NCBI GenBank assembly: GCA_964423795.1
Contig: CAYRGC010000005.1
Location: forward strand, 316-64,315
Direction: 5' to 3'
Source of the DNA: an uncultured Candidatus Peribacteria bacterium
GTDB taxonomy: Bacteria > Patescibacteriota > Gracilibacteria > Peribacterales > Peribacteraceae
DNA: 64,000 bases
Position numbers and translations under genes: made by a program
The notes under the pieces: generated by a model
Database searches by the model: none
The model's input: only the letters and a program-made list of their open reading frames with translations
Told to the model about the DNA's origin: nothing
Shown here: positions 6,065-62,779 of the stretch, piece by piece
Numbering within the stretch: position 1 is the stretch's first letter
Layout: every line of letters starts with the position of its first letter

Positions 6065-6096
6065 AATTACGGATTGCGAATGATGAATGACGAATT
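6065..6096. repeat. tandem heptamer array (family-B type, single arm)
   Basis: aattacg gattgcg aatgatg aatgacg aatt, a 7-nt period directly upstream of the aguB start. I saw no clear partner arm. Confidence 0.5.
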
Positions 6097-7293: not shown

Positions 7294-7347
7294 TGCCGAG
7301 GATCGTTCCTTGGCATCGTCGGTATCCTCGGACTCCTCGGAATCCTT
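7294..7347. repeat. family-B periodic-arm hairpin (9-nt unit ..atcctcgg)
   Basis: gccgaggat..cgtcggtatcctcggactcctcggaatcc. CCGAGGAT (7296-7303) pairs with ATCCTCGG (7323-7330). The same 9-mer family occurs at 35086-35153. Confidence 0.6.
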
Positions 7348-11791: not shown

Positions 11792-11831
11792 CCTCCATTC
11801 CCCTTGCCCCTTCCTCCGAGGGAGGAAGGGG
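11792..11831. repeat. family-C element (CCTCCAYCCC box plus CT/GA hairpin)
   Basis: cctccattcccc ttg ccccttcctcc gag ggaggaagggg, starting 1 nt after the FemAB stop (TAG 11788-11790). Confidence 0.75.
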
Positions 11832-11859
11832 AGGACGTCGCGCGCATATTCAACAGATT

Positions 11860-11895
11860 CCCCTCCTCCCGTGGAGGAGGGGTTAGGGGTGGAGG
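11860..11895. repeat. family-C element, opposite orientation
   Basis: cccctcctcc cgt ggaggagggg ttaggggtggagg. Its reverse complement matches 48738-48774 except for the 3-nt loop. Confidence 0.75.
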
Positions 11896-16244: not shown

Positions 16245-17330
16245 AGAGGTAAGTAGGAGAGGAAAATAAAACGAAGTTGGTTGCAGGGGCTCCCCCTGCG
16301 GAGCAGGAATCCTTTCCTGCGAAGAAGATGAATGCGTACGGGTGGTGAAAGGCATCAGATCAAACCGCCGGGGTGATCGACGCGTTTGTGTCGCGGATGA
16401 GCACGAAGATTGAGTGACGTGCTTTCCTCCTTAAATATAAAGAGTCCACACAAAGGGCAGATACCGTTGCAATGGCAGGCTGACGTGAACCAGAGACACG
16501 ATTCAAGCCCACTCTAAAAAGAGTTGGGCGGGGAATGTGAGAAATTGTCCTCGAAGTCGAGGGCAATGGCCGAGATGTCAAAGACCATGAACGTTAGACC
16601 GCTCGCCTTCTCTTGAGCGGATTAGCGGAATCCTACCGAACCCGTTTCGGGAGAATCAAGCTAGCGCTACGAAGGAGCAGGCACCCAGAGAAACGCCAAA
16701 AGGCGGTGCGCGTTACGCGTGAACTCGGGGACATTTTGCGATTCTCCCGGAAAGAAAAGCGAGAATTCGGCTTTCTCTAATGAATTCTTCACAGAAAACT
16801 AGGGAGGAAGCGTGTGAAACGTCAGGAAAAAAGTCCTTGCCAGGGTCGAGGTTTGCTTAGTAAATATCGCATTTTCGTCAAGCGAAGTTTCCGTTTTGTC
16901 GCGTCCGCTCGACGTTATCTCGCTGAACAATGCTAAAACAAGCATTTTACGCAAGAATTCAGAGCTGTACGTACGGTTTTGTCGTGATCGAGTCCCCTTT
17001 TTACTGAGAATCCGTCTTCTGCATCCGGGCGGGAAGGGCGCAACGAGAAGGAAACTAGGCAGTTTCTCCTTCCGATAACCCAAAAATGACAAGAGGAACG
17101 GACAAGTATGTATGGTTTACTGTCCAAAACCTCCAATTTTCGCGCCTATTGCGTCGATTTTTCCTCCGCTTATGAATCCCCTCTCGCGATTTCGAACGTC
17201 GCTCCGAGGCCCCTTGGAGCACGTCGCGGTTCATGGGAGATGTCGGTTTTTTCTGACATCGATGTCAGGACGGTTCACCAAGAGTGCGGTCGAACGATGC
17301 GTAAGTAATGGTGAGTTCGGTTGGCACCGT

Positions 17331-17461
17331 GTCTCCCTCGTACGTTCGCGCGAGCTACTCAGGAGGACACTGCGTTGGTTCGTCCCTCGGGCTACACTCG
17401 AGATGACAAGCTCACTATGATAAAGCCTTCATTGTCATCCTTCGACTCCGCTCAGGATGAC
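17331..17461. repeat. three tandem family-A-like hairpins downstream of cysS
   Basis: gtcatccttcgactccgctcaggatgac (17434-17461, 8-bp stem, abutting the cysS stop), gtccctcgggctacactcgagatgac (17382-17407), and gtctccctcgtacgttcgcgcgagctactcaggaggac (17331-17368). Confidence 0.65.
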
Positions 17462-17463
17462 AC

Positions 17464-18951: not shown

Positions 18952-19062
18952 GGGAAGAGAATACGTGGAAGACGATCAGGACGCCACGACGCCGGGGCGG
19001 TGAGAGGGAAGGAAGGGCTCAAAACTGAGCCGGCTTCCCGAAGGGGAGGCCGGCTCGGTGCG

Positions 19063-19305
19063 CTACCTCAGAGAGGAGCGCGAACTATTCGGCGCGTTCG
19101 GCTTCTGGACGACTTCCGTCGCCGGTGCCGATTCGGCGCCTGACTTGCCATGGATGGCCTCGTACACTTCCTGTCTGTGTACGGGGACCTCCCGGGGAGC
19201 GACGATCCCGAGACGGACTTTGCCGTCCCGGATCTCGACCACCGTCACCACGATGTCGCCGTTGATGACGATGCTTTCATTCTTTTTCCGAGAAAGAACG
19301 AGCAT
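19063..19305 (-). CDS. csrA: carbon storage regulator CsrA
   Basis: MLVLSRKKNESIVINGDIVVTVVEIRDGKVRLGIVAPREVPVHRQEVYE is the canonical CsrA sequence, with a 25-aa C-terminal tail. Confidence 0.9.
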   Translation of the reverse strand: MLVLSRKKNESIVINGDIVVTVVEIRDGKVRLGIVAPREVPVHRQEVYEAIHGKSGAESAPATEVVQKPNAPNSSRSSLR

Positions 19306-19417
19306 GGGCTACCTCCTTTTCGTTGTGCCCATTATGCCTCGAGCCACGACCGTCGCGGCCACAAGACGTGGCGAGTCTACTGCGCGCGGCGCTTCGCGCA
19401 ACGATTCCACGGAAGAA

Positions 19418-19447
19418 AGAGCCGACGTCGCAGGGACGTCGGCTCTG
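19418..19447 (-). terminator. hairpin after the small RHH-like ORF (terminator or attenuator candidate upstream of csrA)
   Basis: AGAGCCGACGTC gcaggg GACGTCGGCTCT is a 12-bp perfect stem, followed on the minus strand by TTCTTCC (only partly U-rich). Confidence 0.45.
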
Positions 19448-19458
19448 GAGGCGGCGTC

Positions 19459-19638
19459 TCAGTTTGCACTGGGACGCCTCCGTCTGGCCTTTTCCTCGAC
19501 CAGACCATTGAGGACTGCGGTCCGCACGAACTCTGAAAGCTGTTCGTCAGACCATCCACGTTTTTTCACCAGCTCAAACGCTTGTCCGAGCCGGCGAAAG
19601 GCGCGCGTGGTGCGCCTTGGTGAAGAATCATTCTTCAC
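19459..19638 (-). CDS. small basic protein, possibly ribbon-helix-helix-like DNA binder (59 aa; below the track cutoff)
   Basis: Manual translation gives (GTG)KNDSSPRRTTRAFRRLGQAFELVKKRGWSDEQLSEFVRTAVLNGLVEEKARRRRPSAN*. AAGGAG lies 6 nt upstream of the GTG. The ORF is followed by the 12-bp hairpin, and its composition is protein-like. The family assignment is tentative. Confidence 0.45.
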   Translation of the reverse strand: MKNDSSPRRTTRAFRRLGQAFELVKKRGWSDEQLSEFVRTAVLNGLVEEKARRRRPSAN

Positions 19639-19771
19639 GGCTTTCTCCTTGGAAGGAGACGCTTCCGCTCTCAGGAACCATCCATCGGTTCACATCCATG
19701 ATGCGGAAGTACGCGGAGTGTAGCGGAAAACCTTATTTATTATCAATACATATTTTTCTATTGTGTCAAAT

Positions 19772-24098: not shown

Positions 24099-24620
24099 GT
24101 TACGAGCGACGAGCGACGGGAGGTTCCGCCAAAGACAAGAACTGAATTTTTGGCATGCGATTAAGTAAAACTCTAATGTCACGGATGCATATTCACTGGA
24201 GCCGTTTTCCGAATCTGCATGTACTACTACGGTAATCACATGACCACTACTCACCAATTCGAAGATCTCGATGTCTGGAAAGAGGCGCGCATCCTCGTAC
24301 GGGCAATTCGCGCGATATGTAAACAGCCAAAAGTTGCGAAAGATTATGCTTTCGTTGATCAAATCACTCGTGCGGCGCGCTCGATTTCTTCCAATATCGC
24401 AGAAGGATCCGAATCATCGAGCAATGAACAATTCAGTCTCTTCCTCAATTATTCGAAACGATCCTGCGGAGAGGTGCGCTCGCATTTGTATGACGCCTTA
24501 GATGAGCAGTATCTGTCCCAGGAACAGTTTGAAAACATGAAAAACCAAACTATCGTGATTGGACGCAGGCTCGGCTCTTTCATCAAATATCTACACTCGC
24601 ATTCCCGTCGCCCGTCGCTC
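24099..24620. mobile_element. IVS-like insertion: family-B inverted heptamer arms enclosing a four-helix-bundle gene
   Basis: The left arm is gttacgagcgacgagcgacggga (24099-24122). The right arm is tcccgtcgcccgtcgctc (24603-24620), whose reverse complement gagcgacgggcgacggga matches the left arm at 17 of 18 positions. The interior is markedly AT-richer than its surroundings. Confidence 0.5.
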
Positions 24621-24644
24621 AAAACCCATCACCATCTTTCCTAA
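24240..24644 (+). CDS. four-helix-bundle protein (23S rRNA intervening-sequence protein / Avd-like family)
   Basis: MTTTHQFEDLDVWKEARILVRAIRAI..QITRAARSISSNIAEGS..FLNYSKRSCGEVRSHLY is the characteristic pattern of this family. The track start at 24219 adds 7 aa. The last ~14 codons are encoded by the right repeat arm. Confidence 0.8.
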   Translation: MTTTHQFEDLDVWKEARILVRAIRAICKQPKVAKDYAFVDQITRAARSISSNIAEGSESSSNEQFSLFLNYSKRSCGEVRSHLYDALDEQYLSQEQFENMKNQTIVIGRRLGSFIKYLHSHSRRPSLKTHHHLS

Positions 24645-35027: not shown

Positions 35028-35085
35028 CGGGGATTATCGTAGCAGACGGAACGACGAGGATCGGAAATGATAGCCGGATATCGAC

Positions 35086-35153
35086 GATGCCAAGGAATCC
35101 GAGGATATCGAGGATCCTCGGAATCTTCGGTTTCTTCGGAATCCTCGGTATCC
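35086..35153. repeat. family-B periodic-arm hairpin (9-nt unit)
   Basis: gatgccaagg aatccgagg atatcgagg atcctcgg aatcttcgg tttcttcgg aatcctcgg tatcc. The centre cgaggatcctcg is a perfect palindrome. Confidence 0.65.
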
Positions 35154-37781: not shown

Positions 37782-38148
37782 CGCCGGGGGAGCGAGGGTG
37801 TCGCCAAGAAGCGACAAACCAACCGGACTTGAGAAGGAGAAACAACCCCTTTTAGCGATTCTGAAGCATTTTCGGGGTGTGATCGAGTCCGGAAGATGGA
37901 ATGCGTTCTTGACGCCGTGTCAGGATCGATTGACTAGTTTTCACGACGTTTTCCCGGGAAAGAAGATGTGTCTCCGGGGGGATCGGAGTACCATCGCCCG
38001 AGTCTCAACGGCGCGTCAGGACTGGTACGTTTCTTCCTATCGCTTGCTCAGGGAGGCCTACTCTCCCCGGACCGAGGTCCGTGGATGCGGCCACCCACCT
38101 GGTTTCCAGGGACAAGCGTCCCCGTCCAACGGCCGTTTGGACGTGAGG

Positions 38149-38228
38149 AAGTTACGGGTCACGAGTTACGGGTTTCGGGAACTTGTGGATTCTCGTAACT
38201 CGTAACCCGCAACTCGTAACTCACGGGT
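38149..38228. repeat. family-B periodic-arm hairpin (heptamer agttacg / cgtaact)
   Basis: The left arm is gaagttacgggtcacgagttacgggtttcggg. The loop is aacttgtggattc. The right arm is tcgtaactcgtaacccgcaactcgtaactcacggg. Confidence 0.7.
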
Positions 38229-38245: not shown

Positions 38246-39328
38246 ATGACAAATCTGAGAGACCGACTGGAGGCAATGCAGGCGCTGCTCGCCCCGTACG
38301 CGATCCCGCACGGCGGCAGGCTGGGGCGCGAAACGCCGGAGCCGGAGGACCCCACACGCACGCCGTTCCAGCGGGACCGCGACCGCGTGATCCACGCCGA
38401 CGCCTTCCGTCGCCTGCAAGGCAAGACGCAGGTCTTCCTAGCGGGGGAGGGCGACCACTTCCGCACGCGCCTCACGCACACCATGGAGGTCGCCCAGATC
38501 GCGCGGGACATCGCGAGGACGCTCCGGCTCAACGAGGACGTCGCAGAGACGATCGCGCTGGCGCACGACCTCGGCCACCCGCCCTTTGGCCACCGGGGGG
38601 AGCAGGCGCTCGACGCGTGGCTGCGCGCGCACGGGAGCTCCTTCGAGCACAACGCCCAGTCCCTCAGGATCGTGACGCTCCTGGAGGAGCACGCGGCCGG
38701 CGTTCCCGGCCTCAACCTGAACCGCGAGATCCTGGAGGGGCTCCAGAAACACGTGGAGACGGACCGCCCCGGGGGTCGCTCGCTGAGCATCGAGGCGCAG
38801 GCGGTGAACGTCGCCGACGAGATCGCCTACTGCGCCCACGACTGCGACGACGGACTGCGCGCCCGCCTCTTCACCCGCGAGGACCTGCTGCGGGCGGGGA
38901 TCGCACGCCGTGCGGCCGAGCACGCGGAAGCGAGAGGCACCTCGCTGCGCGGCGCGCTCATCCATCTCCTCCTGGAGGACCTCTACGTAGAGACGGCGAA
39001 GCGCCTGCGGAACGTCGCGAGCGTCGAGGACGCGGAGAGCAACCGAGCGCCGCTCGTCGGTTTTTCCGAAGGCACCACGCGCGACCTCTCCGTCCTTAAG
39101 ACGTTCCTCTGGGACCGCATGTACTCTCACGAGCGCGTGACCGCCGCGAGCGAGGCGGGACAAGGCGTGATCGAGGAGCTCTGCGACCGATATCTCACGT
39201 CGCCGCCCGCGAAGGTGCTCGAGCTGCAACGGCGCACCGGAAGCTCGCTCCCCGACGCGGTGAAAGACTACGTCGCGGGGATGACCGACGGCTTCGCCGT
39301 GGAGTCTCTGGGAGCGATGGGCGGTTAG
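38246..39328 (+). CDS. dgt: dGTPase-family HD-domain triphosphohydrolase
   Basis: TPFQRDRDRVIHADAFRRLQGKTQVF..DHFRTRLTHTMEVAQIAR..ALAHDLGHPPFGH. The ATG at 38246 is preceded by TATACT (38228-38233). Confidence 0.88.
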   Translation: MTNLRDRLEAMQALLAPYAIPHGGRLGRETPEPEDPTRTPFQRDRDRVIHADAFRRLQGKTQVFLAGEGDHFRTRLTHTMEVAQIARDIARTLRLNEDVAETIALAHDLGHPPFGHRGEQALDAWLRAHGSSFEHNAQSLRIVTLLEEHAAGVPGLNLNREILEGLQKHVETDRPGGRSLSIEAQAVNVADEIAYCAHDCDDGLRARLFTREDLLRAGIARRAAEHAEARGTSLRGALIHLLLEDLYVETAKRLRNVASVEDAESNRAPLVGFSEGTTRDLSVLKTFLWDRMYSHERVTAASEAGQGVIEELCDRYLTSPPAKVLELQRRTGSSLPDAVKDYVAGMTDGFAVESLGAMGG

Positions 39329-39408
39329 CGATCGGCGATTGGAAAAAGGACGACAGAGGATCTGCCTGTACCTCTTTCCTCTCATCACCAATCACTCGTC
39401 GCTCCTCA
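39324..39408. repeat. family-B-like imperfect hairpin between convergent dgt and M23 genes
   Basis: gttagcgatcggcgattgg ... ctcatcaccaatcactcgtcgctcctcac. The right arm has a 7-nt period, and both stop codons are embedded in the arms. Confidence 0.5.
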
Positions 39409-40416
39409 CTGCAAGGAGGGCAGATACGGCACCGCATCGATCGCCTTGCCGCCGACGTAGAGGCCGAAGTGCACGTGGGGACCCGTGGAGAATCCCGCTC
39501 CGGGCGTGCCGGGCATGCCGCCGGAAAAGCCGATGGCGTCGCCCGCGGCGACGAACTGCCCTGGCTTCACCGAGAACTTGGACAAGTGGCCGTAGAGCGT
39601 GGCGAATCCGCCCGGGTGCTCGATCGTGACGTAGTTGAAGCCGAGACCGTGATCGACCACGTCTTTCACCGTGCCGCTTGCGGCGGCGCGGACGATGGTG
39701 CCCTGATCCGTCGGGATATCGATGCCGAAGTGCTTGAACTTGAAGCGCTGCTCATACCCCGAATCGAGGAAGGTCGCGGAAAGTCCGTGCAACGGATCGA
39801 CCGGCCAGGCAAGCACGATCTGCGCGCCCTGCGCGAGCTGGCTCTTGCCAAGCTCGACGCCGCGCCCGTCGGCTTCCCAGATCTGGTGCAGCGTCCCCAG
39901 CAGGAACTGCTCGGCCCTCTTCTCGTCCTGGAGGAGCGTAAGCAAGAGACGCGTGCTCTGGCGGAACTGCTCCTCGAGGCTCTCGTCGACGACGTCGCCG
40001 AGCTTCGCGCGCTGCTCCTTGAGCACCTCGAGCTCGTAGCGGATCACGTCCTCGCGTTCGCGCAGGAGCTGCTGCGCGGCGCGCGCCTCCATGGCGCGGC
40101 TCTGCGCGGTGGCGAGCTGCATCGCGAGCGAGGCGTCGATCGAACGGGAGGAGCTGCTGGCGGCGACGGGCGCGACGGGATGCTCGTCAATCTGCGTCGG
40201 GACGACGGACGGGAATCCATCCTCGTCCGAAACGGGCGAGGGAATCGCGGGGACGGCGACGGGAGACGAAGAAGACGATGAAGCCGCGATGAGCTGCGCC
40301 GCGGGGGCGACCATCGAGGCCGTGTTCTCGCTGAAGAGCACCGTCGCCCAACCGCTCGCCGCGGCGAGGAACAGGAACAACGTGCCGGGCCGAGGAATAT
40401 GGATGTCGATGTGCAT
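39406..40416 (-). CDS. M23 family peptidase with coiled-coil region (EnvC-like)
   Basis: An N-terminal anchor and a coiled coil (..REDVIRYELEVLKEQRAKL..). The M23 core is FKHFGIDIP..GFNYVTIEHPGGFATLYGH..GPHVHFGLY. Confidence 0.88.
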   Translation of the reverse strand: MHIDIHIPRPGTLFLFLAAASGWATVLFSENTASMVAPAAQLIAASSSSSSPVAVPAIPSPVSDEDGFPSVVPTQIDEHPVAPVAASSSSRSIDASLAMQLATAQSRAMEARAAQQLLREREDVIRYELEVLKEQRAKLGDVVDESLEEQFRQSTRLLLTLLQDEKRAEQFLLGTLHQIWEADGRGVELGKSQLAQGAQIVLAWPVDPLHGLSATFLDSGYEQRFKFKHFGIDIPTDQGTIVRAAASGTVKDVVDHGLGFNYVTIEHPGGFATLYGHLSKFSVKPGQFVAAGDAIGFSGGMPGTPGAGFSTGPHVHFGLYVGGKAIDAVPYLPSLQ

Positions 40417-43663: not shown

Positions 43664-43792
43664 CGGAACGATACTTTACAGCTTGGGGATACGACTTCGG
43701 GTTGACGCCGCCTCGAACGAGGGGTGGGAGGGACGAAGCCGCCGAAGGGGTGCCAAGGGCGCGGGCAACGGGTACAATGGGCAGCCCGGCCC

Positions 43793-45425
43793 ATGACAAG
43801 CAAACCGTCCGGTTTCGGCATGGAATTGCACGCCGCGTTCGCACAGGAACAGCAGCAGTTGCAACAGATGAGCCGGCATCAAGCGGTTCCCAAAAACAAA
43901 TTCGCCAAACACCGCTTCGAGCTCTTCGCGGAAGGACCGCTCGAACGGCGGCTGCGCGAGGGCGCGACGGACGACGTCGTGCAGAAAGCCATACGCGATT
44001 TCATCAAGCGCGTGCGCGACGTCGCCGATCCCGACGACTATTTCTTCGACGAGCCGACGCATCGCAAGTACCTGGAGCAGCGTCAGCGCGGCGAACGGGC
44101 GGGCGGCGCGTGCCTCAACCACGCGTCGCTCGCGCTCGAGCAGCCCGACGTCATGCGGGCGGCGAACAACGCCACCGAGATCGAGCGGTTCGCGCTCAGA
44201 AAGGAAGCGGAGATGGCGCACATGCTTACCGAGCAGGTGCACGTCAGCTCCGGGAACGCCTGTCCGTCCTATTCGGCATCCCTCCCCACTGGTTCGCGCT
44301 CACGCGCAACGCCGGCGAGGCGTCGCTGCTCGCCGCGACGCTCTCGGGAATGCACTCGCGCCGCGGCGACGTCTCCACGCCCGCGTTCGCGGACGGCACG
44401 CACATCAGCACCATACTCAACATGCTGCTCGTGGGCGACGCGGGCAACGTGGGAGGACGCGATCCCTGGAGCGCGTACGCCAGCCATTTCCAGCCCCGCG
44501 ACCACGCCGGGATCGGCCGATGGCTGGGCCAGAACGGCTTCCTCGTGTTCGGCGCGCGCGGCAAGAAGCCAGCGAGGATCCAGGAGGAAATCCAGCGACA
44601 AGTCCTCGGTACGCCGAGCCGCCACGTCGTCCTCACGCACGTGAACCGCGCGACCGGCGAAGAGTTGCCCGTCCGCTCCTTGGGTCAATACATCAAGAAG
44701 GAAGGCGGCCTGGACTACCGCGTCATCGTCGACGGAGCCATGGCCATGGGAAACATCGACGTCGATCTCGGCGGACTCATGGCCGGCGACGCCGGCACCA
44801 AGAGCGTGGACTACTACATCGGCGCCCTGCACAAGGCCATGGGATGCCCCACGGTGGGCGTGCTGGCATTCGACGCGCGAACGCTGGTGGATTCGCCGGG
44901 ATTCGATCAGCTGCGCAAGGCCCACGTGCACAGGAACCTGCCGGTGCTCCGCGGCATGTTCGATCCGTCGCTGAAGATCCAACCCACGACGGAAGACGCC
45001 ATCGGCCTGGGCGACCTGTGGGGAGCGCTCCAATCGATCGATAAGAAAAGGGATTGATTACTGATCACGAACGCCCCCGACAAGCCCACGATGACCGTGC
45101 GCCGCATGGCGGAGGAACGCCAACCCCTCAAAGACTTCTTCCTGCAGCAACTCCGGAGCGAACTTTTGGGATCCCCGCAGGTCATCATGCAAGCGTTCCC
45201 GCTGAAGATGCCCGCAACGCCGTTCATCCACGCGTTCCGCCTTCCGGAAATCGACATGCGCGCCTACGTCGAGGAACTGAGCAAGCGCAGGATCTTCTGT
45301 ACGTACATCGCGAGCCTGGACGCCGTGCGCGTTTCCTTCGATCAGGAACAAAAAAATCCGAACTCTCGCTCGCGGCGAAAGTCATGGCGGATGAAGCCCG
45401 GGAAGCCCTCAGGAGAGCCACTTGA
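43793..45425 (+). pseudogene. class V (cysteine desulfurase / isopenicillin-N-epimerase-like) aminotransferase, disrupted at three points
   Basis: Segment 1 (43793 to ~44235, track ORF 43724..44644) carries ..ACLNHASLALEQPDVMRAA... Segment 2 is in another frame (track ORF 43702..45057): ARQLRERLSVLFGIPPHWFALTRNAGEA.. ..DGAMAMGNIDVDL.., ending at the TGA at 45055-45057. The same frame continues with ..FIHAFRLPEIDMRAYVEELSKRRIFCTYIASLDAVRVSFDQEQ. After an A7 run (45350-45356) the plausible C-terminus SELSLAAKVMADEAREALRRAT* is in a third frame, with its stop at 45423-45425. Confidence 0.7.
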
Positions 45426-46618: not shown

Positions 46619-46694
46619 TGGCAGGCGCGGCAGGGATCGAACCCGCGACCCTCGGTTTTGGAGACCGATGCTCTACCAGCTGAGCTACGCGCCT
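46619..46694 (-). tRNA. tRNA-Trp (anticodon CCA), CCA encoded
   Basis: Minus strand: AGGCGCG ta GCTC agctggta GAGC a TCGGT ctCCAaa ACCGA gggtc GCGGG ttcgatc CCTGC CGCGCCT g cca. Confidence 0.95.
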
Positions 46695-46809: not shown

Positions 46810-48750
46810 GTGAAGATCCTCGAACATCGCTGGTATTGGGCCCTGGCGGCTCTTCTCTCGATCCCCCTCGCCGCGTACCTGGCGTTCGGCCGCTCGCTCA
46901 TCCTCGGCTTCGCGCCGATCGACGACATCCTGCTTGTGACCCAGAACCTCGCGGCGCACGGCCTTTCCTGGGAGCACCTCAAGCTCGCCTTCACGACGTA
47001 CGATCCGGAGCTCTATATTCCGCTCACGCTCGCGAGCTTCCAGGTCGATTTCTCGCTCGGGGGACTGATGCCGCACCAGTTCCACCTGACGAACCTGCTC
47101 CTGCACGCGTGCAACGGCGTCCTCGCGGCGCTGCTCCTCCGCAAGCTCACGGGTTCCCGGTGGGGGAGCGTGCTCGGCGGACTGCTCTTCGCTGTCCATC
47201 CGCTGCAGACGGAAGCGGTCGTGTGGATCGCGGGACGCAAGGATCTGCTCTTCGCGCTCTTCGCGCTGCTGTCGCTCCTCTTCTGGACGGATCGCGAGCG
47301 CGGATGGTGGCGGACCGCACTCTCCATCGGATTCCTCGCGCTGGCGCTCCTTGCGAAGGTGACGGCCGTGATCGTGCTTCCGCTGTGGGTGCTGATCGAT
47401 TGGTTTGTCGGAAGGCAGAAAAGGGAGAAGACGGAGAAAAGGGGAAAAAGGTGGTGGCAGCAAAAAATCAGCGACCTTTCGTCCCTTTTTTCCCTTTCAA
47501 ACCTTTTCTCCCTCTCGTCTCTCGCACCCCTCAGCGGCCTCGTACTCTGTACCATCTTCGGCCTCGTCTCTCTCGGCGGCAAGGAGCGCGTGCTCGGGTC
47601 GCAGCCGGTCTTCGAGATGCTCCTCACGGGCTTCCGGAGCGTATGGTTTTACGTCACGCAATTCGTCGCGCCGGTCTCCCTCTCGATCTCGCACGAGTGG
47701 GCGGGCGGCTTCTCGCCGACGCATCCCGCGCTCTGGGCGGGAACGCTGCTAACCGCCGGAGCGACGTGGCAGGCGTGGAGATGCCGCCAGCGCGCGCCGT
47801 GGGTGACGTTCGGCTGGCTCTTCTTCCTCATCGCGCTCGCGCCGACGTTTCTGGGCTCGCGGAAGGGCGGCATGCTGCTCTTCGCGGTCGACCGGTACGC
47901 GTACGTGCCGCTCCTCGGCCTCGTCTTCCTCGCCGCGGAGACGGGAAGGCGCGCGGCGGAGCGATGGAGCGCCGGGAAGATCGCGGCAGGAGCCGGACTC
48001 GCCGTCGTCGGGATAGCGATCCTACTGTCCCGCGCGCAGACGCGCACGTGGGACTCGCCCGAGAAGATCTTCGAGCAGGCGCTGCGCGTGACGCCCTCCT
48101 CGGTGGGATCCCGCGTGAGCCTCGCGAGCGTCATCCTCCAGAAAGGCGATACTGAGAAGGCGTTCGTCGTGCTCAAGGAAGGGCTCAAGTACGGGAAGGA
48201 CAAGGAGCTGAACCTTCTCGCCGGGCAGATCTACGCCAAGGCGGGGGACACCGCCTCGGCGCGCGAGCAGTTCGCGACCGTTCTCAACGAGGATCCGAAG
48301 AATCCCGACGCGCTCTTCGCCCTGGGCTCGCTCGACGAGCAGGAGCAGGATCACGACGCGGCGCTGGAGGAGTACCGCAAGGCCGTCGACGCCGATCCGT
48401 CGTACGTCTCCGCGCGTAACGGCATCGCGCGCATCAGCCTGCAACGGAACGACGACGCGACGGCGGAAGCGGAACTCGCGGCGGCGCTCCACTGGAACCC
48501 GAGCACCGGCGAAAGCCACCGCCTGCTCGGGCTGCATCTCGAGAAGAAGAAGGACTACGCCGGCGCGGAGGATCATTTGCGCAAGGCGATCGATTCGCGC
48601 GGAAAGTCCGTGGACCTGCTCCTCGCCCTCGCGGGCGTGCTCCACGCGCAAGGGAAAGACGCCGAGGCGAAGACAACGCTCGAGGAGGTGCTGCGGGCGG
48701 ATCCGCGGAACGGGGAGGCGAAGGAAATGATGAATTCCCTCCACCCCTAA
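46810..48750 (+). CDS. TMTC-like membrane protein: polytopic GT-C-type N-terminal domain plus C-terminal TPR repeats
   Basis: 646 aa with a GTG start. The N-terminal FAPIDDILLV and HLTNLLLHACNGVL are typical of DUF1736/PMT_2-TPR proteins. At least four TPR-like repeats lie in the last ~230 aa. The last 4 codons and the stop lie inside a family-C repeat. Confidence 0.8.
   Translation: MKILEHRWYWALAALLSIPLAAYLAFGRSLILGFAPIDDILLVTQNLAAHGLSWEHLKLAFTTYDPELYIPLTLASFQVDFSLGGLMPHQFHLTNLLLHACNGVLAALLLRKLTGSRWGSVLGGLLFAVHPLQTEAVVWIAGRKDLLFALFALLSLLFWTDRERGWWRTALSIGFLALALLAKVTAVIVLPLWVLIDWFVGRQKREKTEKRGKRWWQQKISDLSSLFSLSNLFSLSSLAPLSGLVLCTIFGLVSLGGKERVLGSQPVFEMLLTGFRSVWFYVTQFVAPVSLSISHEWAGGFSPTHPALWAGTLLTAGATWQAWRCRQRAPWVTFGWLFFLIALAPTFLGSRKGGMLLFAVDRYAYVPLLGLVFLAAETGRRAAERWSAGKIAAGAGLAVVGIAILLSRAQTRTWDSPEKIFEQALRVTPSSVGSRVSLASVILQKGDTEKAFVVLKEGLKYGKDKELNLLAGQIYAKAGDTASAREQFATVLNEDPKNPDALFALGSLDEQEQDHDAALEEYRKAVDADPSYVSARNGIARISLQRNDDATAEAELAAALHWNPSTGESHRLLGLHLEKKKDYAGAEDHLRKAIDSRGKSVDLLLALAGVLHAQGKDAEAKTTLEEVLRADPRNGEAKEMMNSLHP
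47418..47527. repeat. family-B periodic-arm palindrome (9-nt unit) inside the TMTC-like coding sequence
   Basis: The left arm is gaaaagggagaagacggagaaaaggggaaaaagg. The right arm is cctttcgtc ccttttttc cctttcaaa ccttttctc cctctcgtc tctcgcac. Complementary blocks include ggagaaaagg/ccttttctcc. The element is translated in frame as ..KREKTEKRGKRWWQQKISDLSSLFSLSNLFSLSSLAP.. Confidence 0.65.
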
Positions 48751-48774
48751 CCCCTCCTCCGAGGGAGGAGGGGA
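48738..48774. repeat. family-C element supplying the stop codon of the TMTC-like gene
   Basis: cctccacccctaa cccctcctcc gag ggaggagggg. The TAA at 48748-48750 is the gene's stop. Confidence 0.75.
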
Positions 48775-48801
48775 ACAGAGGAAAATGCTCTTTGCTGTTC
48801 T

Positions 48802-48840
48802 CCCCTTCCTCCCCTGGAGGAAGGGGCCGGGGGATGGAGG
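48802..48840. repeat. family-C element abutting the topA stop
   Basis: ccccttcctcc cct ggaggaagggg ccgggggatggagg. On the minus strand it reads TGA-CCTCCATCCCCC... Confidence 0.75.
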
Positions 48841-52576: not shown

Positions 52577-52649
52577 GCAACCGGGATTCCAGGCAACCAA
52601 GCAACCAGGAGATCATCCTGGTTACGTGGTTTCTCGGTTGCCTGGTTGC
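52577..52649. repeat. family-B periodic-arm hairpin (7-nt unit) between convergent khpB and dnaJ
   Basis: The left arm is gcaaccgggattccaggcaaccaagcaaccagga. The loop is gatca. The right arm is tcctggttacgtggtttctcggttgcctggttgc. Confidence 0.75.
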
Positions 52650-54861: not shown

Positions 54862-55446
54862 ATGATGATGCGTCCATACCAATACTCACTCCTCGGCCTC
54901 GCCGCCCTGCTCCTCCCGGGACTCTCCGCGGCGCAGATCTACCTCGGTCCCGAGGACGTGCTCTACATGAACGCGAAGCAGACGCAGCGCTTGAACCCTC
55001 GCAGCGCCGAGAAGAGCGTGATGGAGCGTGAGGCGAAGATCCAAAGCCAGCAGAGCAGCGCCCGCCCGACCGTGAAGGAGTGGTGGGACGAGTCCGAGAC
55101 CGCCTCTCCGACGGTCCAGGACGTGGTGACCCCCCACCTGAGCGATCAGACCTCCTCCGTTTCCACGCACCAAGCGGCCGACTCCTCCTCGTCCGAGCCG
55201 TCGCTCCATCCCGGCGCGAACGTGAAGGGCTCGAGCACGGATCGTATCCAGCAGCGCCTCCTTGAGCGCATCCAAAACGGCCAGTACCGCGTGGTGCCGG
55301 TCGAACTCCCGGAAGTCGTCCGGTACTACAGGGACGGCTACCTCGTGCATTCCGGGCCGGAGAGCGCGCTCGTCGTGCTCGCGATGGTTCCCGCCGCGTA
55401 CTTCGTCATCCGCAAGGCGCGGAAGATGGAGAAGTTCGTGCGCTGA
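54862..55446 (+). CDS. hypothetical protein with signal peptide and C-terminal TM anchor
   Basis: MMMRPYQYSLLGLAALLLPGLSAAQ.. ..ALVVLAMVPAAYFVIRKARK. TATACT (54856-54861) directly precedes the three ATGs, so the third (54868) is the likely leaderless start. Confidence 0.55.
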   Translation: MMMRPYQYSLLGLAALLLPGLSAAQIYLGPEDVLYMNAKQTQRLNPRSAEKSVMEREAKIQSQQSSARPTVKEWWDESETASPTVQDVVTPHLSDQTSSVSTHQAADSSSSEPSLHPGANVKGSSTDRIQQRLLERIQNGQYRVVPVELPEVVRYYRDGYLVHSGPESALVVLAMVPAAYFVIRKARKMEKFVR

Positions 55447-55450
55447 GGTT

Positions 55451-55565
55451 TCAAAGGGGACAAAGGGTACAAGGGGCACAAAGGTAGTTTCGCTTTTCGC
55501 GTATGTATGGATTCCTTTGTCCCTATTTGTACCCTTTGACACCTTTGCAACCTTTGTACCTTTCC
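55451..55565. repeat. family-B periodic-arm hairpin (8-9-nt unit)
   Basis: The left arm is caaaggggacaaagggtacaaggggcacaaagg. The loop is about 29 nt. The right arm is cctttgtcc ctatttgta ccctttgac acctttgca acctttgta cctttccc. Confidence 0.75.
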
Positions 55566-55687
55566 CTTGCGTTCCGCCAGACCAGAGAACGCCGGGAAAG
55601 CCTCGGCAAAGCCGATAACCGAGCGTTGCCAGACAAAAACCCGACGACCTTCCCCGCGTGAACGCCGGGTCTGTTAAGGTGCGCTCG

Positions 55688-57349
55688 ATGTCCTCACCCG
55701 ACCTCTCCCTCACCGGCAAGCGTTGGCACGGGCGCCTCGGGACGACCCGGCATCCCGACATCGCGTCCCTCACGGCGGCGCTCAGGGCCCACCGCGGGGT
55801 CGATGCCGGTACCGGCGGGCCGTTTCCCATCGCGACCCTGCCGGACGCCGCGAAGGCGATCGACCGCGTGACGCGCGCGGTGAAGGACGGAGAGCGCATC
55901 GCCGTCTTCGGCGACTACGACTGCGACGGCATCACCTCGACGGCCCTTCTCGCCCGCATGCTGCGCCGCAGGGGCGCGAAACCGTTGCTCCGCCTGCCCC
56001 ATCGCCAGCGCGAGGGCTACGGCCTCAAGATGCCGATCGTGGAGGAGATGGCGCGCGAAGGGGTGACGCTGCTGCTTACCGCGGATACCGGCGGTTCCTG
56101 CGTGGCGGAGATCGCGGAGGCGGCGCGGCGGGGGATCGACGTGATCGTCCTCGATCACCACCACCTGCCGTCGACGGGCCTGCCGCCCGCGTACGCGCTC
56201 TTGCACCCCGCGCTCCTGCCCGTCCCGCTCGCTTCGCCGCCAGCGGCCGCCGGCGTGACGTGGGCGTTCGTGGACGCCGTCGAACGCGCGGAAGGCTCCG
56301 CCGACTGGGAGGACCGCGACACGGATCTCGCGCTCGCCGCCCTGGGCACGGTGGCGGACCTCGTGGAGCTCAAAGACGGAAACCGCTTGCTCACGCAGGA
56401 GGGGCTCCGCGCCCTCGGAAGGCTGGAACGGGGGGCGCTCGCCTTCCTGAAGATGCAGGCGGGCATCGAGGGAACGCCCAAGAGCAGCGACATCGCGTTC
56501 CGCCTGGCGCCGCGCATCAACGCCGCCGGGCGCATGGCGGACCCCGCCGTGGCCCTCGAGGCGCTGCTCGGCAGCACCGAGGCGGCGCTCCAACTCGAAG
56601 ACTGGAACCGCGAACGGCAGTCGCTCGTCTCCGTCCTCGCGGAGGACGCGACGCGCTCCGCGGGCGACGACGCCATGATCTGCCTGATGGACCCGCGCTA
56701 CTCGCCGGGCGTCTGCGGGCTCATCGCGGGAAAGGTAACCGACAAGTTCGGCCGCCCCTCGCTCGCCGCCTCCGCGGACCCGGACGGACGCTCCACCGCG
56801 TCGCTGCGCAGCGTGCCGGGATACAACGTGACGGAAGGACTCGAGCGCGTCTCGGACCTGCTGACCTCCTTCGGCGGGCACGCCATGGCCGCGGGCTGCA
56901 CGTTCGAGTCGCGGAACTTCCCGGAGCTTAGCCGGCGGCTCGCCGAGGACGTCCGCGCCCGCATGGACGCGTCGGCACTGGTGCCGAGCCTCGCGTACGA
57001 CGCGGAACTGCGCCTGCCGCACGTCACGCTCGACCTGTGCCGCGCGCTCTCCGATCTCGAACCCTTCGGGCAGGGCAATCCCGAGCCGCGCTTCGTCCTC
57101 CACGGCGTACGCCTCACCGACGCGCGGCGCGTGGGACGCGACGCGACGCATCTCCAGGCGCGCGCGGGCAGCTGCAAGCTCATCGGCTTCGGGCTCGGGC
57201 ACCTCGCGCAGGAGACGGCGATCCCTCTCGACCTGCTCGTGCAGGTGGGCATCGATACGTGGCAGGGCGCCATGCGGCCGCAGATGTATCTGCAGGACCT
57301 GCGGGTGCCGGTCGCTCAGGAAGTAGGAGGAAAGAGGAGAGAGCTTTAA
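55688..57349 (+). CDS. recJ: single-stranded-DNA-specific exonuclease RecJ
   Basis: DHH motifs IAVFGDYDCDGITSTAL, LLLTADTG, VIVLDHHH, and GGHAMAAG (DHHA1). Confidence 0.9.
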   Translation: MSSPDLSLTGKRWHGRLGTTRHPDIASLTAALRAHRGVDAGTGGPFPIATLPDAAKAIDRVTRAVKDGERIAVFGDYDCDGITSTALLARMLRRRGAKPLLRLPHRQREGYGLKMPIVEEMAREGVTLLLTADTGGSCVAEIAEAARRGIDVIVLDHHHLPSTGLPPAYALLHPALLPVPLASPPAAAGVTWAFVDAVERAEGSADWEDRDTDLALAALGTVADLVELKDGNRLLTQEGLRALGRLERGALAFLKMQAGIEGTPKSSDIAFRLAPRINAAGRMADPAVALEALLGSTEAALQLEDWNRERQSLVSVLAEDATRSAGDDAMICLMDPRYSPGVCGLIAGKVTDKFGRPSLAASADPDGRSTASLRSVPGYNVTEGLERVSDLLTSFGGHAMAAGCTFESRNFPELSRRLAEDVRARMDASALVPSLAYDAELRLPHVTLDLCRALSDLEPFGQGNPEPRFVLHGVRLTDARRVGRDATHLQARAGSCKLIGFGLGHLAQETAIPLDLLVQVGIDTWQGAMRPQMYLQDLRVPVAQEVGGKRREL

Positions 57350-57392
57350 GCCTGGACAAGCTAAAAAGCTTCCCAAGCTCTTTCCTCTTTCC
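57326..57392. repeat. imperfect hairpin spanning the recJ stop (between convergent recJ and XRE genes)
   Basis: ggaggaaagaggagagagctt (57326-57346) pairs with aagctctttcctctttcc (57375-57392). Confidence 0.6.
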
Positions 57393-57402
57393 TTCGCTCT
57401 TT

Positions 57403-57897: not shown

Positions 57898-58380
57898 ATG
57901 GGATCGTCTCCATTCCACGGGATCTTCGCGGCACTCGCGCAAGGACAGGAAGCGCAAGACGCGGCGCCTGCGCGCTCGCAGGCGAGCCAGCCCGCGCGCG
58001 ACGATTCCGCGGCGGCGCGCTCGTCGTCGCCCTCTTCGTCGTCGACGCCGCAGGTCGGACGCGTGGCGGTCGACATCTTCGAGCAGGACGACTACTTCAT
58101 CATCAAGGCGCCGATCGCCGGCGTGCGCATGAGCGACATCGACCTCGAGGTGAACGACAACGTTCTCACGATCCGCGGCCAGCGGAAGCAGACCGATGCT
58201 GCCGCGGACGGACAGTACTTCCTCCGCGAGTGCTTCTGGGGCTCCTTCGCGCGCAGCATCACGCTCCCGATGAGCATCGACCCGCGCAAGATCAAAGCCA
58301 CGTTCAACAAGGACTGCGTGCTGAAGATCCTCGTGCCCAAGGAAGAGCGCGTGAAGATCGTGAAAATCAGCGAGGCGTGA
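57898..58380 (+). CDS. Hsp20/alpha-crystallin family small heat-shock protein
   Basis: The alpha-crystallin domain VDIFEQDDYFIIKAPIAGVRMSDIDLEVNDNVLTIRGQR..FARSITLP..KATFNKDCVLKILVPK follows a Ser/Ala-rich N-terminal region. Confidence 0.9.
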   Translation: MGSSPFHGIFAALAQGQEAQDAAPARSQASQPARDDSAAARSSSPSSSSTPQVGRVAVDIFEQDDYFIIKAPIAGVRMSDIDLEVNDNVLTIRGQRKQTDAAADGQYFLRECFWGSFARSITLPMSIDPRKIKATFNKDCVLKILVPKEERVKIVKISEA

Positions 58381-58383
58381 CGA

Positions 58384-58450
58384 GGTAACCAGGTAACCAA
58401 GAAACCAGGTAACCAGGAAAAATCCTGGTTACCTGGTTACGGGTTGCTGG
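58384..58450. repeat. family-B periodic-arm hairpin (8-nt unit ggtaacca)
   Basis: The left arm is ggtaacca ggtaacca agaaacca ggtaacca gga. The loop is aaaa. The right arm is tcctggttacctggttacgggttgctgg. Confidence 0.8.
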
Positions 58451-58458
58451 GATGCTTT

Positions 58459-58836
58459 TTAGCGGCGCGACTTCTTCTTTCCCTTCACCTTGCTCACGCG
58501 CGATTTAGAGACGGCCTTCGCCTTCGGCGCGGGCATCGCCTTCTTCGCCTTCGCGGCGACGGCCTTGAGGTGGCGCGTGGAGGACGGCGACTTGCGCAGG
58601 AGCGCGAGCGCGTCGGTCGGCAGGGCCTTCAGGGACTGCCACACGTCCTCGCCGCCCATGTAGCGGTGGTCGGCGCGCTGGAGGAGCGTCTGGAACTCCT
58701 TCAGGGACGCGTGCGTCTCCCGGCGGATCACCGGATCCGTGAGATCGCTCTCGAGGAGCTTGATGAGGCGCGTCTGCACGGCGTACAGATTCTGGACGCG
58801 CTCGAGCGCACGATCGATCGAGGAAACGGGGTTCAT
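58459..58836 (-). CDS. hypothetical protein with a Lys/Ala-rich C-terminal tail
   Basis: The preferred start is MNPVSSIDRALERVQNLY (ATG 58836). The C-terminus is ..KAVAAKAKKAMPAPKAKAVSKSRVSKVKGKKKSRR. Confidence 0.5.
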   Translation of the reverse strand: MNPVSSIDRALERVQNLYAVQTRLIKLLESDLTDPVIRRETHASLKEFQTLLQRADHRYMGGEDVWQSLKALPTDALALLRKSPSSTRHLKAVAAKAKKAMPAPKAKAVSKSRVSKVKGKKKSRR

Positions 58837-59016
58837 ATGGATATGTATGTGAAGTACGTGCCTTATTCTAGCGAAAAACACGATGGAAGGAAAGTCGGAG
58901 GCAAAAGTAGGGAGTATTTGGCAGATGATATTTTGCCTAAAGGAAGCGGAAAAAGTGGGAATGAAATTTCCCATGCCAGATACAATCTACGCACCGTATT
59001 CTGCTACCCTACCAAC

Positions 59017-59841
59017 ATGAAGCTTGCACAAGCCATTCTCCCCGTCGCGGGCCTCGGCACGCGCTTCCTTCCGTGGACCAAGGCGGTACCGAAGGAGCTG
59101 CTGCCCATCGGGAATCAGCCGATCATCGCGCTGCTTGTGGACGAGTGCTTGAGCGTCGGCATTACCGACGTCTGTTTCGTCATCAACCGCGGCAAGGAGG
59201 CGATCCCCCAATACTTCTACGAGAACCCCGCGCTGAGCGCGGAGCTGGAGCGGAAGGGCAAGACGCACCTGCTCGAGGATCTCACGCGCTACGACTCGGT
59301 GAACTTCCACGTGACCTACCAGGAGCAGATGCTCGGCGACGGCCACGCGCTCCTGCAGGCGCGTCACTGGGTGAAGACGCCGGAGGTGGCCGTGCTCTTC
59401 GGCGACGACCTGATCGTAGGGAAGCGCAACGGTCTCCAGCAGCTGACGGCGGCGATGGACGCCACCAAGGGCGACCGCGACGCCGTGATGCTCTGCCTGC
59501 AGAAGATCGACCCCAAGCACACGGAGAAGTACGGCATCGTGGCGGTGGATAACTCTGCCGCGAAGGGCAACGTGCGCCGCGTGACGGGCCTGGTGGAAAA
59601 GCCGAAGCCCAAGGATGCGCCAAGCGACCTCGGGATCGTGGGGAAGTACGTCGTCCCCAAGATGATCTTCGACAAGCTCCATTTGATCGAGGAGGGCTCG
59701 CACGGCGGCGAGATCCGCCTGATCGACGCGCTCATCGCGAACAGGGACGCCGTCGACATCTTCGGCTGCGTCTTCGATGGCAAACGGTACGACACGGGCA
59801 CCCCCGAAGGCTACAAAGAAGCCGTCCTCGACCTTGGATAA
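59017..59841 (+). CDS. galU: UTP--glucose-1-phosphate uridylyltransferase
   Basis: ILPVAGLGTRFLPWTKAVPKELLPI.., GDGHALL, VEKPKP. The ATG at 59017 is preferred over the track start at 58444. Confidence 0.93.
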   Translation: MKLAQAILPVAGLGTRFLPWTKAVPKELLPIGNQPIIALLVDECLSVGITDVCFVINRGKEAIPQYFYENPALSAELERKGKTHLLEDLTRYDSVNFHVTYQEQMLGDGHALLQARHWVKTPEVAVLFGDDLIVGKRNGLQQLTAAMDATKGDRDAVMLCLQKIDPKHTEKYGIVAVDNSAAKGNVRRVTGLVEKPKPKDAPSDLGIVGKYVVPKMIFDKLHLIEEGSHGGEIRLIDALIANRDAVDIFGCVFDGKRYDTGTPEGYKEAVLDLG

Positions 59842-60082
59842 TCACTGAGTGTCACCCTGAGCGGAGTCGAGGGACGACACGGGCACGCCCGAGGGATAGA
59901 AGGAGGCGGTACTCGACCTTGGCTAAGTGTCACCCTGAGCGGAGTCGAAGGGCGACACCGGCACCCCTGAGGGGTACAAGGAGGCGGTACTCGACCTTGG
60001 CTAAGTGTCACCCTGAGCGGAGTCGAAGGGCGACACCGGCACCCCTGAGGGGTACAAGGAGGCGGTCCTCGACTTGGGCTGA
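59842..60082. repeat. three tandem units (85, 78, 78 nt), each a family-A hairpin plus a copy of the last 16 galU codons and a stop
   Basis: The units span 59842-59926, 59927-60004 and 60005-60082. Each contains gtgtcaccctgagcggagtcga(a/g)gg.gac followed by gac ac. ggc ac. cc. gag gg. ta. aag gag gcg gt. ctc gac .t. ggc t.a. Confidence 0.9.
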
Positions 60083-62725: not shown

Positions 62726-62759
62726 TAAAAAGTCCGGCGTAGCACGAGTGCCACGCCGG
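62726..62759 (-). terminator. rho-independent terminator candidate after the 41-aa ORF
   Basis: On the minus strand: CCGGCGT ggcactcgtgct ACGCCGG followed by ACTTTTTAT. Confidence 0.5.
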
Positions 62760-62779
62760 AAAGGTGATAATGGGCCGCC

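Follow-up and report, generated by a model that had tools for sequence, protein, structure and literature searches.

Gene ends in the genome of an uncultured Candidatus Peribacteria bacterium, a member of the CPR/Peregrinibacteria class, carry long palindromes whose arms are themselves tandem arrays of 7–9-nt units, and the same architecture recurs across the class, at orthologous gene boundaries, with unit sequences that are unrelated from genome to genome. We consider it about an even bet (probability roughly 0.5) that these periodic-arm hairpins are lineage-wide, fast-evolving, self-homogenising intergenic repeats, comparable to REP/BIME elements and kept at permissive gene ends. They would then represent a third route, besides REP/MITE families and plain terminators, by which hairpins populate bacterial gene ends, one in which the palindrome architecture is kept by concerted evolution of short tandem units and the sequence itself turns over freely. 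The stretch of DNA analysed here, called the window below, is 64,000 nt long.

Architecture of the hairpin at 58384–58450

The focal hairpin sits between the Hsp20 gene at 57898–58380 (+) and a conserved gene at 58459–58974 (-), whose stop codons face each other, and its left arm starts 3 nt past the Hsp20 stop codon (58378–58380). It consists of the following parts:

58384–58418: left arm, GGTAACCA GGTAACCA AGAAACCA GGTAACCA GGA, that is four 8-nt units followed by GGA
58419–58422: loop, AAAA (TTTT in the close relative described below)
58423–58450: right arm, TCCTGGTTACCTGGTTACGGGTTGCTGG, pairing with the left arm and parsed as TCC TGGTTACC TGGTTAC GGGTTGC TGG
58456–58460 (+): T5 run 3' of the hairpin, overlapping the stop codon (58459–58461) of the minus-strand gene 58459–58974

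The units of the left arm, the AAAA loop and the complementary right arm can be read directly from the sequence, exactly as described in the first-pass annotation. The left arm shows autocorrelation at lag 8 (p = 0.0005 against 2000 shuffles), and the periodicity of the right arm is likewise significant in the shuffle test (p = 0.0015). Folded as RNA, the plus strand reaches -46.6 kcal/mol compared to -19.7 ± 2.9 for shuffles (z = -9.4), and the minus strand -38.4 kcal/mol. The hairpin is not an assembly artefact, because an independent Logan assembly gives the same sequence for it and for the neighbouring hairpin, and MAGs from many studies show the trait as well. Gene calls in this area and elsewhere were curated from Pfam, PDB alignment, Logan gene calls and cross-species matches; they replace, among others, the ORF at 58444–59841 (+), a shadow ORF mis-called by codon-model and homology callers.

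Periodic arms in the window

Eight of the ten longest inverted repeats of the window coincide with tandem arrays of period 7–9, and 11 periodic segments are found in total, against 1.0 ± 0.9 in 100 dinucleotide shuffles. As in long simple sequence repeats, head-to-tail units of 5–11 nt in at least three copies are over-represented relative to shuffles. Apart from the focal hairpin, the elements are (with the shorter name used in the text in brackets where it differs):

52577–52649: GCAACCRR 8-nt units, a paralogous copy of the focal element; fills exactly the stop-to-stop space of Jag/KhpB (+) and DnaJ (-)
55447–55565 (55451): period-9 hairpin with GGGnACAAA / CCTTTGTNC units; directly 3' of the stop of gene 54865–55446 (+), upstream of recJ
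57326–57400: purine/pyrimidine hairpin with weak period 7; convergent gap between recJ and an HTH gene
39324–39408: hairpin with weak period 7; occupies the space from the dGTPase (+) stop to the M23 peptidase (-) stop
38150–38224 (38149): period-7 hairpin with AGTTACG / CGTAACT units; about 20 nt upstream of the dGTPase start
35076–35153 (35076, arms tested as 35086): period-9 hairpin with GGATNNCGA / TCGGNNTCC units; divergent gap between FtsQ-like (-) and glycosyltransferase (+, ATG at 35166) genes
7294–7347: small hairpin followed by a period-9 TCCTCGGAA array; directly 3' of the deoxyhypusine synthase stop
47418–47527: period-9 hairpin read in frame inside the CDS 46810–48750 (membrane/TPR protein)
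11026–11158 (arrays 11038 and 11141): two inverted period-7 arrays (GAGTTGC / ACTCGCA), 80 nt apart, inside a FemAB-family CDS
10746–10770: single array, CGCAACC in three copies; divergent gap between SOD and FemAB
24099–24121: single period-7 array (GAGCGAC) adjoining the rnpA start, with its complement at 24603–24622
6065–6096: single-arm period-7 array in a divergent gap

The left arm of 57326 is formed by the last recJ codons, with the stop codon TAA (57347–57349) just within the loop, and its right arm ends 3 nt short of the stop of the convergent HTH gene. The 39324 hairpin folds better on the minus strand (-42.2 vs -31.8 kcal/mol), and the region of the FemAB-family protein that holds the 11026–11158 arrays aligns to solved FemX-type structures.

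Autocorrelation at lag 7, 8 or 9 reached p ≤ 0.005 against 2000 shuffles at 58384, 52577, 55451, 38149, 35086, 7294 and 47418, as well as at 10746, 11038/11141, 24099 and 6065. In the same arm-shuffle test, control hairpins without periodicity (51458, 51872 and 19024) gave p = 0.5–0.95; 57326 was marginal (p = 0.05–0.09) and 39324 modest. Apart from these last two, the 7–9-nt arm periodicity that had been proposed from reading the sequence thus stands above shuffled controls in nearly every arm listed. Not every listed locus is a hairpin: 6065 and 10746 are single arrays, and 24099/24603 do not form a hairpin, since the two arrays are about 500 nt apart. A search of the whole window with Rfam covariance models returned two tRNAs only, and the hairpins matched no family at gathering score.

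Quasi-palindromic units could be imagined as a general source of the second arm, which fits CCWGGTWA, CCNNGGAT and GTWAC-type units when judged by eye but fails for the purine/pyrimidine units of 55451 and 57326. A G-quadruplex reading, as in Xanthomonas, was rejected because most units are without G-tracts.

The window also contains a hairpin family without periodicity, CCCYTCCTCC-GAGG/CNTGG-GGAGGARGGG, found at 11801–11889 and 48751–48825 with two hairpins per site in a REP/BIME-like arrangement. These occupy the convergent gaps between FemAB and an S-layer protein and between a TPR protein and ClpB, with fold z-scores of -4 to -5.

Position relative to genes and the terminator question

Four hairpins of the window lie in convergent gaps (58384, 52577, 57326 and 39324), where they fill the stop-to-stop space almost exactly, three lie between co-directional genes and one (35076) in a divergent gap. 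Among the co-directional cases 55451 and 7294 are directly 3' of the upstream stop and 38149 is just 5' of the next start. The onset of the hairpin is 0–5 nt from a stop codon at 58384, 52577, 57326, 39324, 55451 and 7294, and not at 38149, 35076 or in the two elements that are internal to CDSs (47418 and 11026–11158). Divergent or 5' regions hold, in addition to hairpin 35076, the three single arrays. The first-pass annotation had placed most elements between convergent stops or just upstream of starts; the full picture is mixed, with two elements within CDSs and two 3' of co-directional stops.

In the Peribacteria set, periodic hairpins with callable flanking strands number 9 in convergent, 1 in divergent and 3 in tandem arrangement; many cases in the automatic gene-context table are without a strand call, so these counts refer to callable cases only, and the convergent ones represent three orthologous gaps and are not independent, because all comparison loci surround recJ. 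Permissiveness alone could account for this positional bias.

The elements might instead be the Rho-independent terminators of the lineage, often working bidirectionally between convergent genes, with the periodicity being incidental. At least six loci of the window are immediately 3' of stop codons, the focal hairpin is followed by T5 and is more stable by 8 kcal/mol when the sense strand is folded, and in two genomes (L012 and L086) a canonical terminator with a GC stem and T-run is found in an orthologous gap that elsewhere holds periodic hairpins. Against this, a T-rich tail, defined as at least six T in the 10 nt past the stem on either strand, accompanies just 2 of 33 Peribacteria periodic hairpins, the mean number of T being 2.8 compared to a background of 2.1. 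The 33 hairpins span 87 nt on average with 31 pairs, and 43% of these pairs are G-C, far from the short GC-rich stem of about 5–14 bp, and some elements are in 5' regions or CDSs. Ordinary terminators with a GC-rich stem and T-run are present separately in the same genome:

51872–51917 (+): ordinary terminator
19024–19059 (-): ordinary terminator
62733–62760 (-): ordinary terminator

Given the scarcity of T-rich tails, the long stems that are not GC-rich and the separate ordinary terminators, the periodic hairpins are not canonical intrinsic terminators. The idea of bidirectional terminators, raised when the sequence was first read, fails by the canonical features of tail and stem, and we regard the terminator explanation as improbable. 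A role in RNA is suggested by the position of the elements and by the canonical terminators at the same orthologous sites, and we think that they probably serve as 3' stem-loops.

Distribution across Peribacteria

RecJ (55658–57349) assigns the window to Candidatus Peribacteria. The comparison set consisted of one close relative (RecJ 83% identical) and about 25 further Peribacteria loci (44–54% identical), and one detector, registering a periodic array with an inverted partner within 120 nt, was applied to all loci. Peribacteria sequence (450 kb) has about 87 such pairs per Mb and the controls (1.7 Mb) have about 4, distributed as follows:

Peribacteria, 450 kb scanned: period 7, 19; period 8, 8; period 9, 12; each other period from 4 to 12, at most 1
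Clostridia controls, surroundings of the same gene, 1.71 Mb: 7 in total, all periods pooled

In the GC-rich control loci there were no periodic arrays with an inverted partner. The counts by period in Peribacteria and controls therefore indicate that the trait is class-wide and confined to unit lengths of 7–9 nt. A run of about ten tandem GTTAGG/GCTAGG units, a telomere-like hexamer without an inverted partner, was seen in another Peregrinibacteria locus (L015, 5737–5797).

The orthologous convergent gaps Jag|DnaJ, RecJ|HTH and Hsp20|next gene hold periodic-arm hairpins in different Peribacteria, with unrelated units. Such hairpins are present in 5 of 17, 7 of 23 and 4 of 22 genomes at the three gaps, or in about a quarter to a third, compared to 0 of 21 genomes at an intra-operon junction. 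After recJ the units in six genomes are TGGCATT, AGTGGTC, ATTTTCA, AGCTAACT, AACCAAA and CTGAAAT, with GGAAAGA in the window, and after Jag/KhpB they are AATTGAT, CACTACT, AACCAATA, TCGGTAACT, GAGCTTT and GCAACCAG. Across orthologous intergenic regions, then, the architecture persists and the unit changes; the first-pass annotation had proposed this comparison.

Turnover and concerted change in a close relative

A metagenome scan with RecJ gave no match closer than about 50% identity, and protein searches with Hsp20 and dGTPase gave one close relative only. This relative is represented by L002 and L162, which overlap over 896 nt at 100% and are one organism; it is syntenic with the window over 29.3–64 kb at 75–80% nucleotide identity. 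Four of eight periodic hairpins (58384, 52577, 38149 and 35076) are common to both and the other four (39324, 47418, 55451 and 57326) are absent or replaced. At the site of 39324 the dGTPase and M23 peptidase genes of the relative are 9 nt apart, at 47418 its protein, otherwise 75% identical, is without 27 residues that are present here, the 55451 element is missing and the site of 57326 holds a different hairpin. Of those retained, 38149 is still a hairpin despite many substitutions, and the right arm of 35076 (35117–35153) is identical at 39 of 40 positions against a 75% background.

At 58384 three of the four left units read GGTAACC in the window and GGCAACC in the relative, and the right units carry the complementary change. 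The window retains the C form in its outermost right unit, and the relative has the aberrant third unit, AAGAAACC, at the same place. Parallel changes over units and over both arms are the signature of concerted evolution and not of independent substitutions. The change fits homogenisation at the DNA level, by slippage, conversion or template switching, and the AAAA/TTTT inversion of the loop would be the expected product of arm–arm recombination or template switching. Polymorphism in unit number, which slippage would leave, was not seen in this sole close comparator, where the differences are substitutions and gain or loss of whole elements, with no unit-sized indels; the near-identical Rifle strains L027, L084 and L085 have as their sole length difference a run of N (a scaffold gap).

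The comparison revealed further features that are separate from the periodic hairpins. Just 5' of the 38149 element and of dGTPase lies a 37-nt block (38109–38145, GGGACAAGCGTCCCCGTCCAACGGCCGTTTGGACGTG) that forms two small hairpins. Its identity to the relative is 100%, where the background is about 75%; it has no match in Rfam and may be a small regulatory RNA or a leader. Directly past the stop of gene 59016–59841, a 78-nt unit is repeated 3.0 times (59848–60077, 94% matches), and about 190 nt of this area are missing from the alignment with the relative, so the copy number differs. The tRNA-Trp at 46619–46694 is 100% identical in the relative but inverted relative to the flanking synteny, and two partial extra copies of its 3' part are found nearby there (tRNA-Trp region at L002 850–926, 1033–1059 and 1166–1201). 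About 1.7 kb of the window (43724–45408), with ambiguous ORFs on both strands, are absent from the relative, where the flanks are joined directly (L162 12869–12907), and may be an insertion.

Sequence families and the possibility of mobile hairpins

The hairpins at 58384 and 52577 and the orthologues of both in the relative can be aligned across the entire element at 75%, and their odd units are inherited in place (AAGAAACC at 58384 and GATTCCAG at 52577). A stretch of 21/22 nt and the TCCTCGGAA unit are common to 35076–35153 and 7294–7347, and a CGYAAC-type heptamer is common to 10746, 11038, 11141 and 38149, with 24099 and 6065 resembling it by eye only. Elsewhere in the clade one genome (L003) has three full-length copies of an element and another (L013) has two copies with matching arms around unrelated loops of 40–50 nt; homology thus extends over the whole length, including the interior, for 58384/52577 and the L003 copies, and not for those of L013. 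Pairs of periodic loci sharing sequence (score ≥ 11) make up 5.6% within genomes and 0.8% between genomes, a difference of about sevenfold. In these partial genomes the families have 2–3 copies per 20–64 kb, alongside many unrelated units.

The initial impression that the sequence differs at every locus is therefore correct only in part: many units are unrelated, but 58384/52577, 35086/7294 and the CGYAAC-type loci share sequence. The stronger statement, that all loci share only a rule of construction, does not survive the paralogous families and the excess of within-genome sharing; conversely, the loci do not collapse into one family on alignment, as ordinary MITEs would, and fall into several small ones. 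Such small families and within-genome sharing mean that copying or ectopic conversion occurs, as in REP/MITE-type repeats.

This brings up the possibility of non-autonomous mobile hairpins, MITE- or REP/BIME-like, moved in trans, for example by a Y1/HUH transposase acting on single-stranded DNA hairpins. The periodic arms would be an ancestral property of such elements and their location at gene ends would reflect tolerated insertion without a host function. The paralogous copies within genomes and the varying presence of elements between close relatives are as expected for mobile elements, and the in-frame insertion in a CDS at 47418 recalls the Rickettsia palindromic elements. There is also one candidate for a target-site duplication: GGAGCGATGG, at 39310–39322 on the left flank of 39324, is single-copy in the relative, where it is the complement of the C-terminal codons of the peptidase, and the right flank (39409–39420) holds a synonymously diverged copy of it. 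No target-site duplication was found at 55451, 57326 or 47418. Against mobility stand the many small families with unrelated units, in place of one or a few high-copy families, and the L013 copies that share arms but not loops; nor does mobility explain why the units changed in concert at the orthologous 58384. Conserved termini were not seen either, with no common terminal motif evident in alignments of the 58384/52577, L003 and L013 copies, and there was no transposase among the part of the window proteins that was scanned against Pfam. We hold this explanation to be rather unlikely.

Proposed origin and maintenance

The self-homogenising repeats that we favour could arise and persist in four steps. 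Replication slippage would generate and maintain short tandem arrays of 7–9-nt units. A nearby inverted copy would then arise, giving the second arm, after which arms and units could correct each other via intrastrand template switching or gene conversion, so that a change in one unit would spread to both arms, the architecture staying and the unit sequence drifting. Occasional copying or conversion of whole arms to other loci would produce small families in each genome. Finally, elements would survive where insertion is harmless, above all in the few bases between convergent stop codons. Once transcribed there, a stem of about 30 bp would probably act as a 3'-end stem-loop that hinders read-through and 3' exonucleases, and possibly as an RNase III site. 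We infer the involvement of slippage and template switching from three of the observations above: units that changed in concert, families within genomes, and turnover of elements. The two elements internal to CDSs and the one in a 5' region count against this explanation, the sharp 7–9-nt window is not obviously predicted by plain slippage, and arms shared around unrelated long loops, as in L013, fit neither simple copy-paste nor purely local growth.

These last features could be accommodated by a dedicated templated process that creates both the units and the inverted complement de novo at gene ends, either by hairpin-primed synthesis or by copying a short template reiteratively, as telomerase does. 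This is the strongest form of what the first-pass annotation suggested. The narrow 7–9-nt range resembles a molecular ruler, unit repertoires are genome-specific, identical arms surround unrelated loops and one loop differs by apparent inversion. However, there is no candidate enzyme or template, known mutational processes suffice, and the variant units at 58384 and 52577 are inherited in place, which shows vertical descent and not rewriting. We find such a process highly improbable, and retain it at all because of the 7–9 window and the shared arms with unrelated loops. Put in more general terms, a DNA-level process of Peribacteria with a 7–9-nt 'ruler' that writes units and inverted complement at gene ends has a slim chance of being real; it may use hairpin-priming, a reiterative polymerase or a hairpin-specific mobilising enzyme, and, if true, it would give each genome its own repertoire of units and account for the identical arms around unrelated loops.

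Scarcely probable, in our opinion, is that the units are sites for a nucleic-acid-binding protein with 7–9 nt per monomer, such as one of the cold-shock/OB-fold type bound to single-stranded RNA or DNA; the arrays would then be regulatory and the hairpin would modulate access. The narrow range of unit lengths would agree with this, and single arrays adjoin starts (10746, 24099 and 6065), as does the right arm at 35117–35153, which abuts a start codon and is conserved far above background. CspB has been reported on heptamer repeats with one protein per unit (PMC4679880). Most units are, however, base-paired in hairpins, and unit sequences differ so widely within and between genomes that no single sequence-specific binder fits.

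Relation to known repeat systems

The first-pass annotation was not aware of a described mechanism for such elements; read as a lack of precedent, this is too strong. Xanthomonas genomes contain tandem GGGAATC arrays in 70–75 inverted, stem-loop-capable pairs per genome, mostly 0–50 nt past the stop of the upstream ORF, which keep their positions from species to species but vary in length and sequence (Rehm et al., 2015; PMC4692102). The same paper cites a hypothesis relating the excess of heptamers in bacteria to the DNA polymerase footprint and slippage. As in Peribacteria, two tandem arrays of one unit are found close by on opposite strands. In contrast to the one G-rich unit used genome-wide in Xanthomonas and read as G-quadruplex forming, Peribacteria, a CPR lineage, have dozens of unrelated units with periods of 7, 8 and 9 and no general G-tract pattern (most units are without G3). 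The Xanthomonas arrays are thus a partial precedent.

Cyanobacterial STRR heptamers, attributed to Mazel et al. in 1990, are intergenic tandem 7-nt arrays, strongly over-represented in particular lineages. In Beggiatoaceae, TAACTGA forms intergenic tandem 7-nt direct repeats, likewise strongly over-represented, with one inverted case among the 170 sets surveyed (PMC4679880). Both are essentially direct, fixed in sequence and mostly upstream of starts, whereas Peribacteria have inverted pairs with varied units.

REP/BIME elements are extragenic, species-specific palindromes found 3' of genes, often where two genes converge, which form inverted pairs with variable linkers and for which mRNA stabilisation and termination have been proposed (PMC3333891, PMC3733652). 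The Peribacteria elements are alike in being palindromes at gene 3' ends, often in convergent gaps, and differ in their arms, as those of REP are not tandem arrays; REP families are high-copy, carry a conserved GTAG/CGTC end and go together with a cognate RAYT transposase. The Rickettsia palindromic elements are in-frame MITE-type inserts of one sequence family, without internal short-period structure, and they resemble the hairpin repeat at 47418–47527 in residing inside a CDS with the frame preserved. Intrinsic terminators include long 'I-shaped' hairpins without a U-trail, which occur in GC-rich bacteria. The stem-loop directly past stops, which may be arranged bidirectionally, is common to these and to Peribacteria, where 31 of 33 hairpins lack a U-tract and stems are about 31 bp with 43% G-C. 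Lastly, quasipalindrome template-switch mutagenesis and slipped-strand mispairing in E. coli give arm correction, loop inversion and unit gain or loss. They are mutational mechanisms and not an element class, with products as we propose for Peribacteria, and they are not known to build a genome-wide architecture.

We found no description of such structures in the literature on Peribacteria or the wider CPR. The kind itself is known, if poorly understood, and what is new here is its multi-unit, clade-wide form. It ties the heptamer-array reports from Xanthomonas, cyanobacteria and Beggiatoaceae into one broader phenomenon. An array of period 7–9 with an inverted partner would also offer a countable signature of slippage and palindrome self-correction in an uncultured, repair-poor CPR lineage. 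For annotation some caution is advised, as terminator predictors that depend on a U-tract and repeat finders that depend on families miss these gene-end structures.

Other structured intergenic stretches

Two long stretches of the window without periodic hairpins may be of separate interest. The 1.1 kb at 16356–17463 contain no convincing ORF and include a structured segment at 16872–16961 (z = -4.9). A gap of 457 nt between apparently divergent genes (19305–19763) may encode an unannotated RNA; at 19417–19506 (minus strand) it holds the most structured 90-nt intergenic stretch of the window (-57.8 kcal/mol, z = -10.6), inside which lies a perfect 12-bp palindrome (19418–19446).
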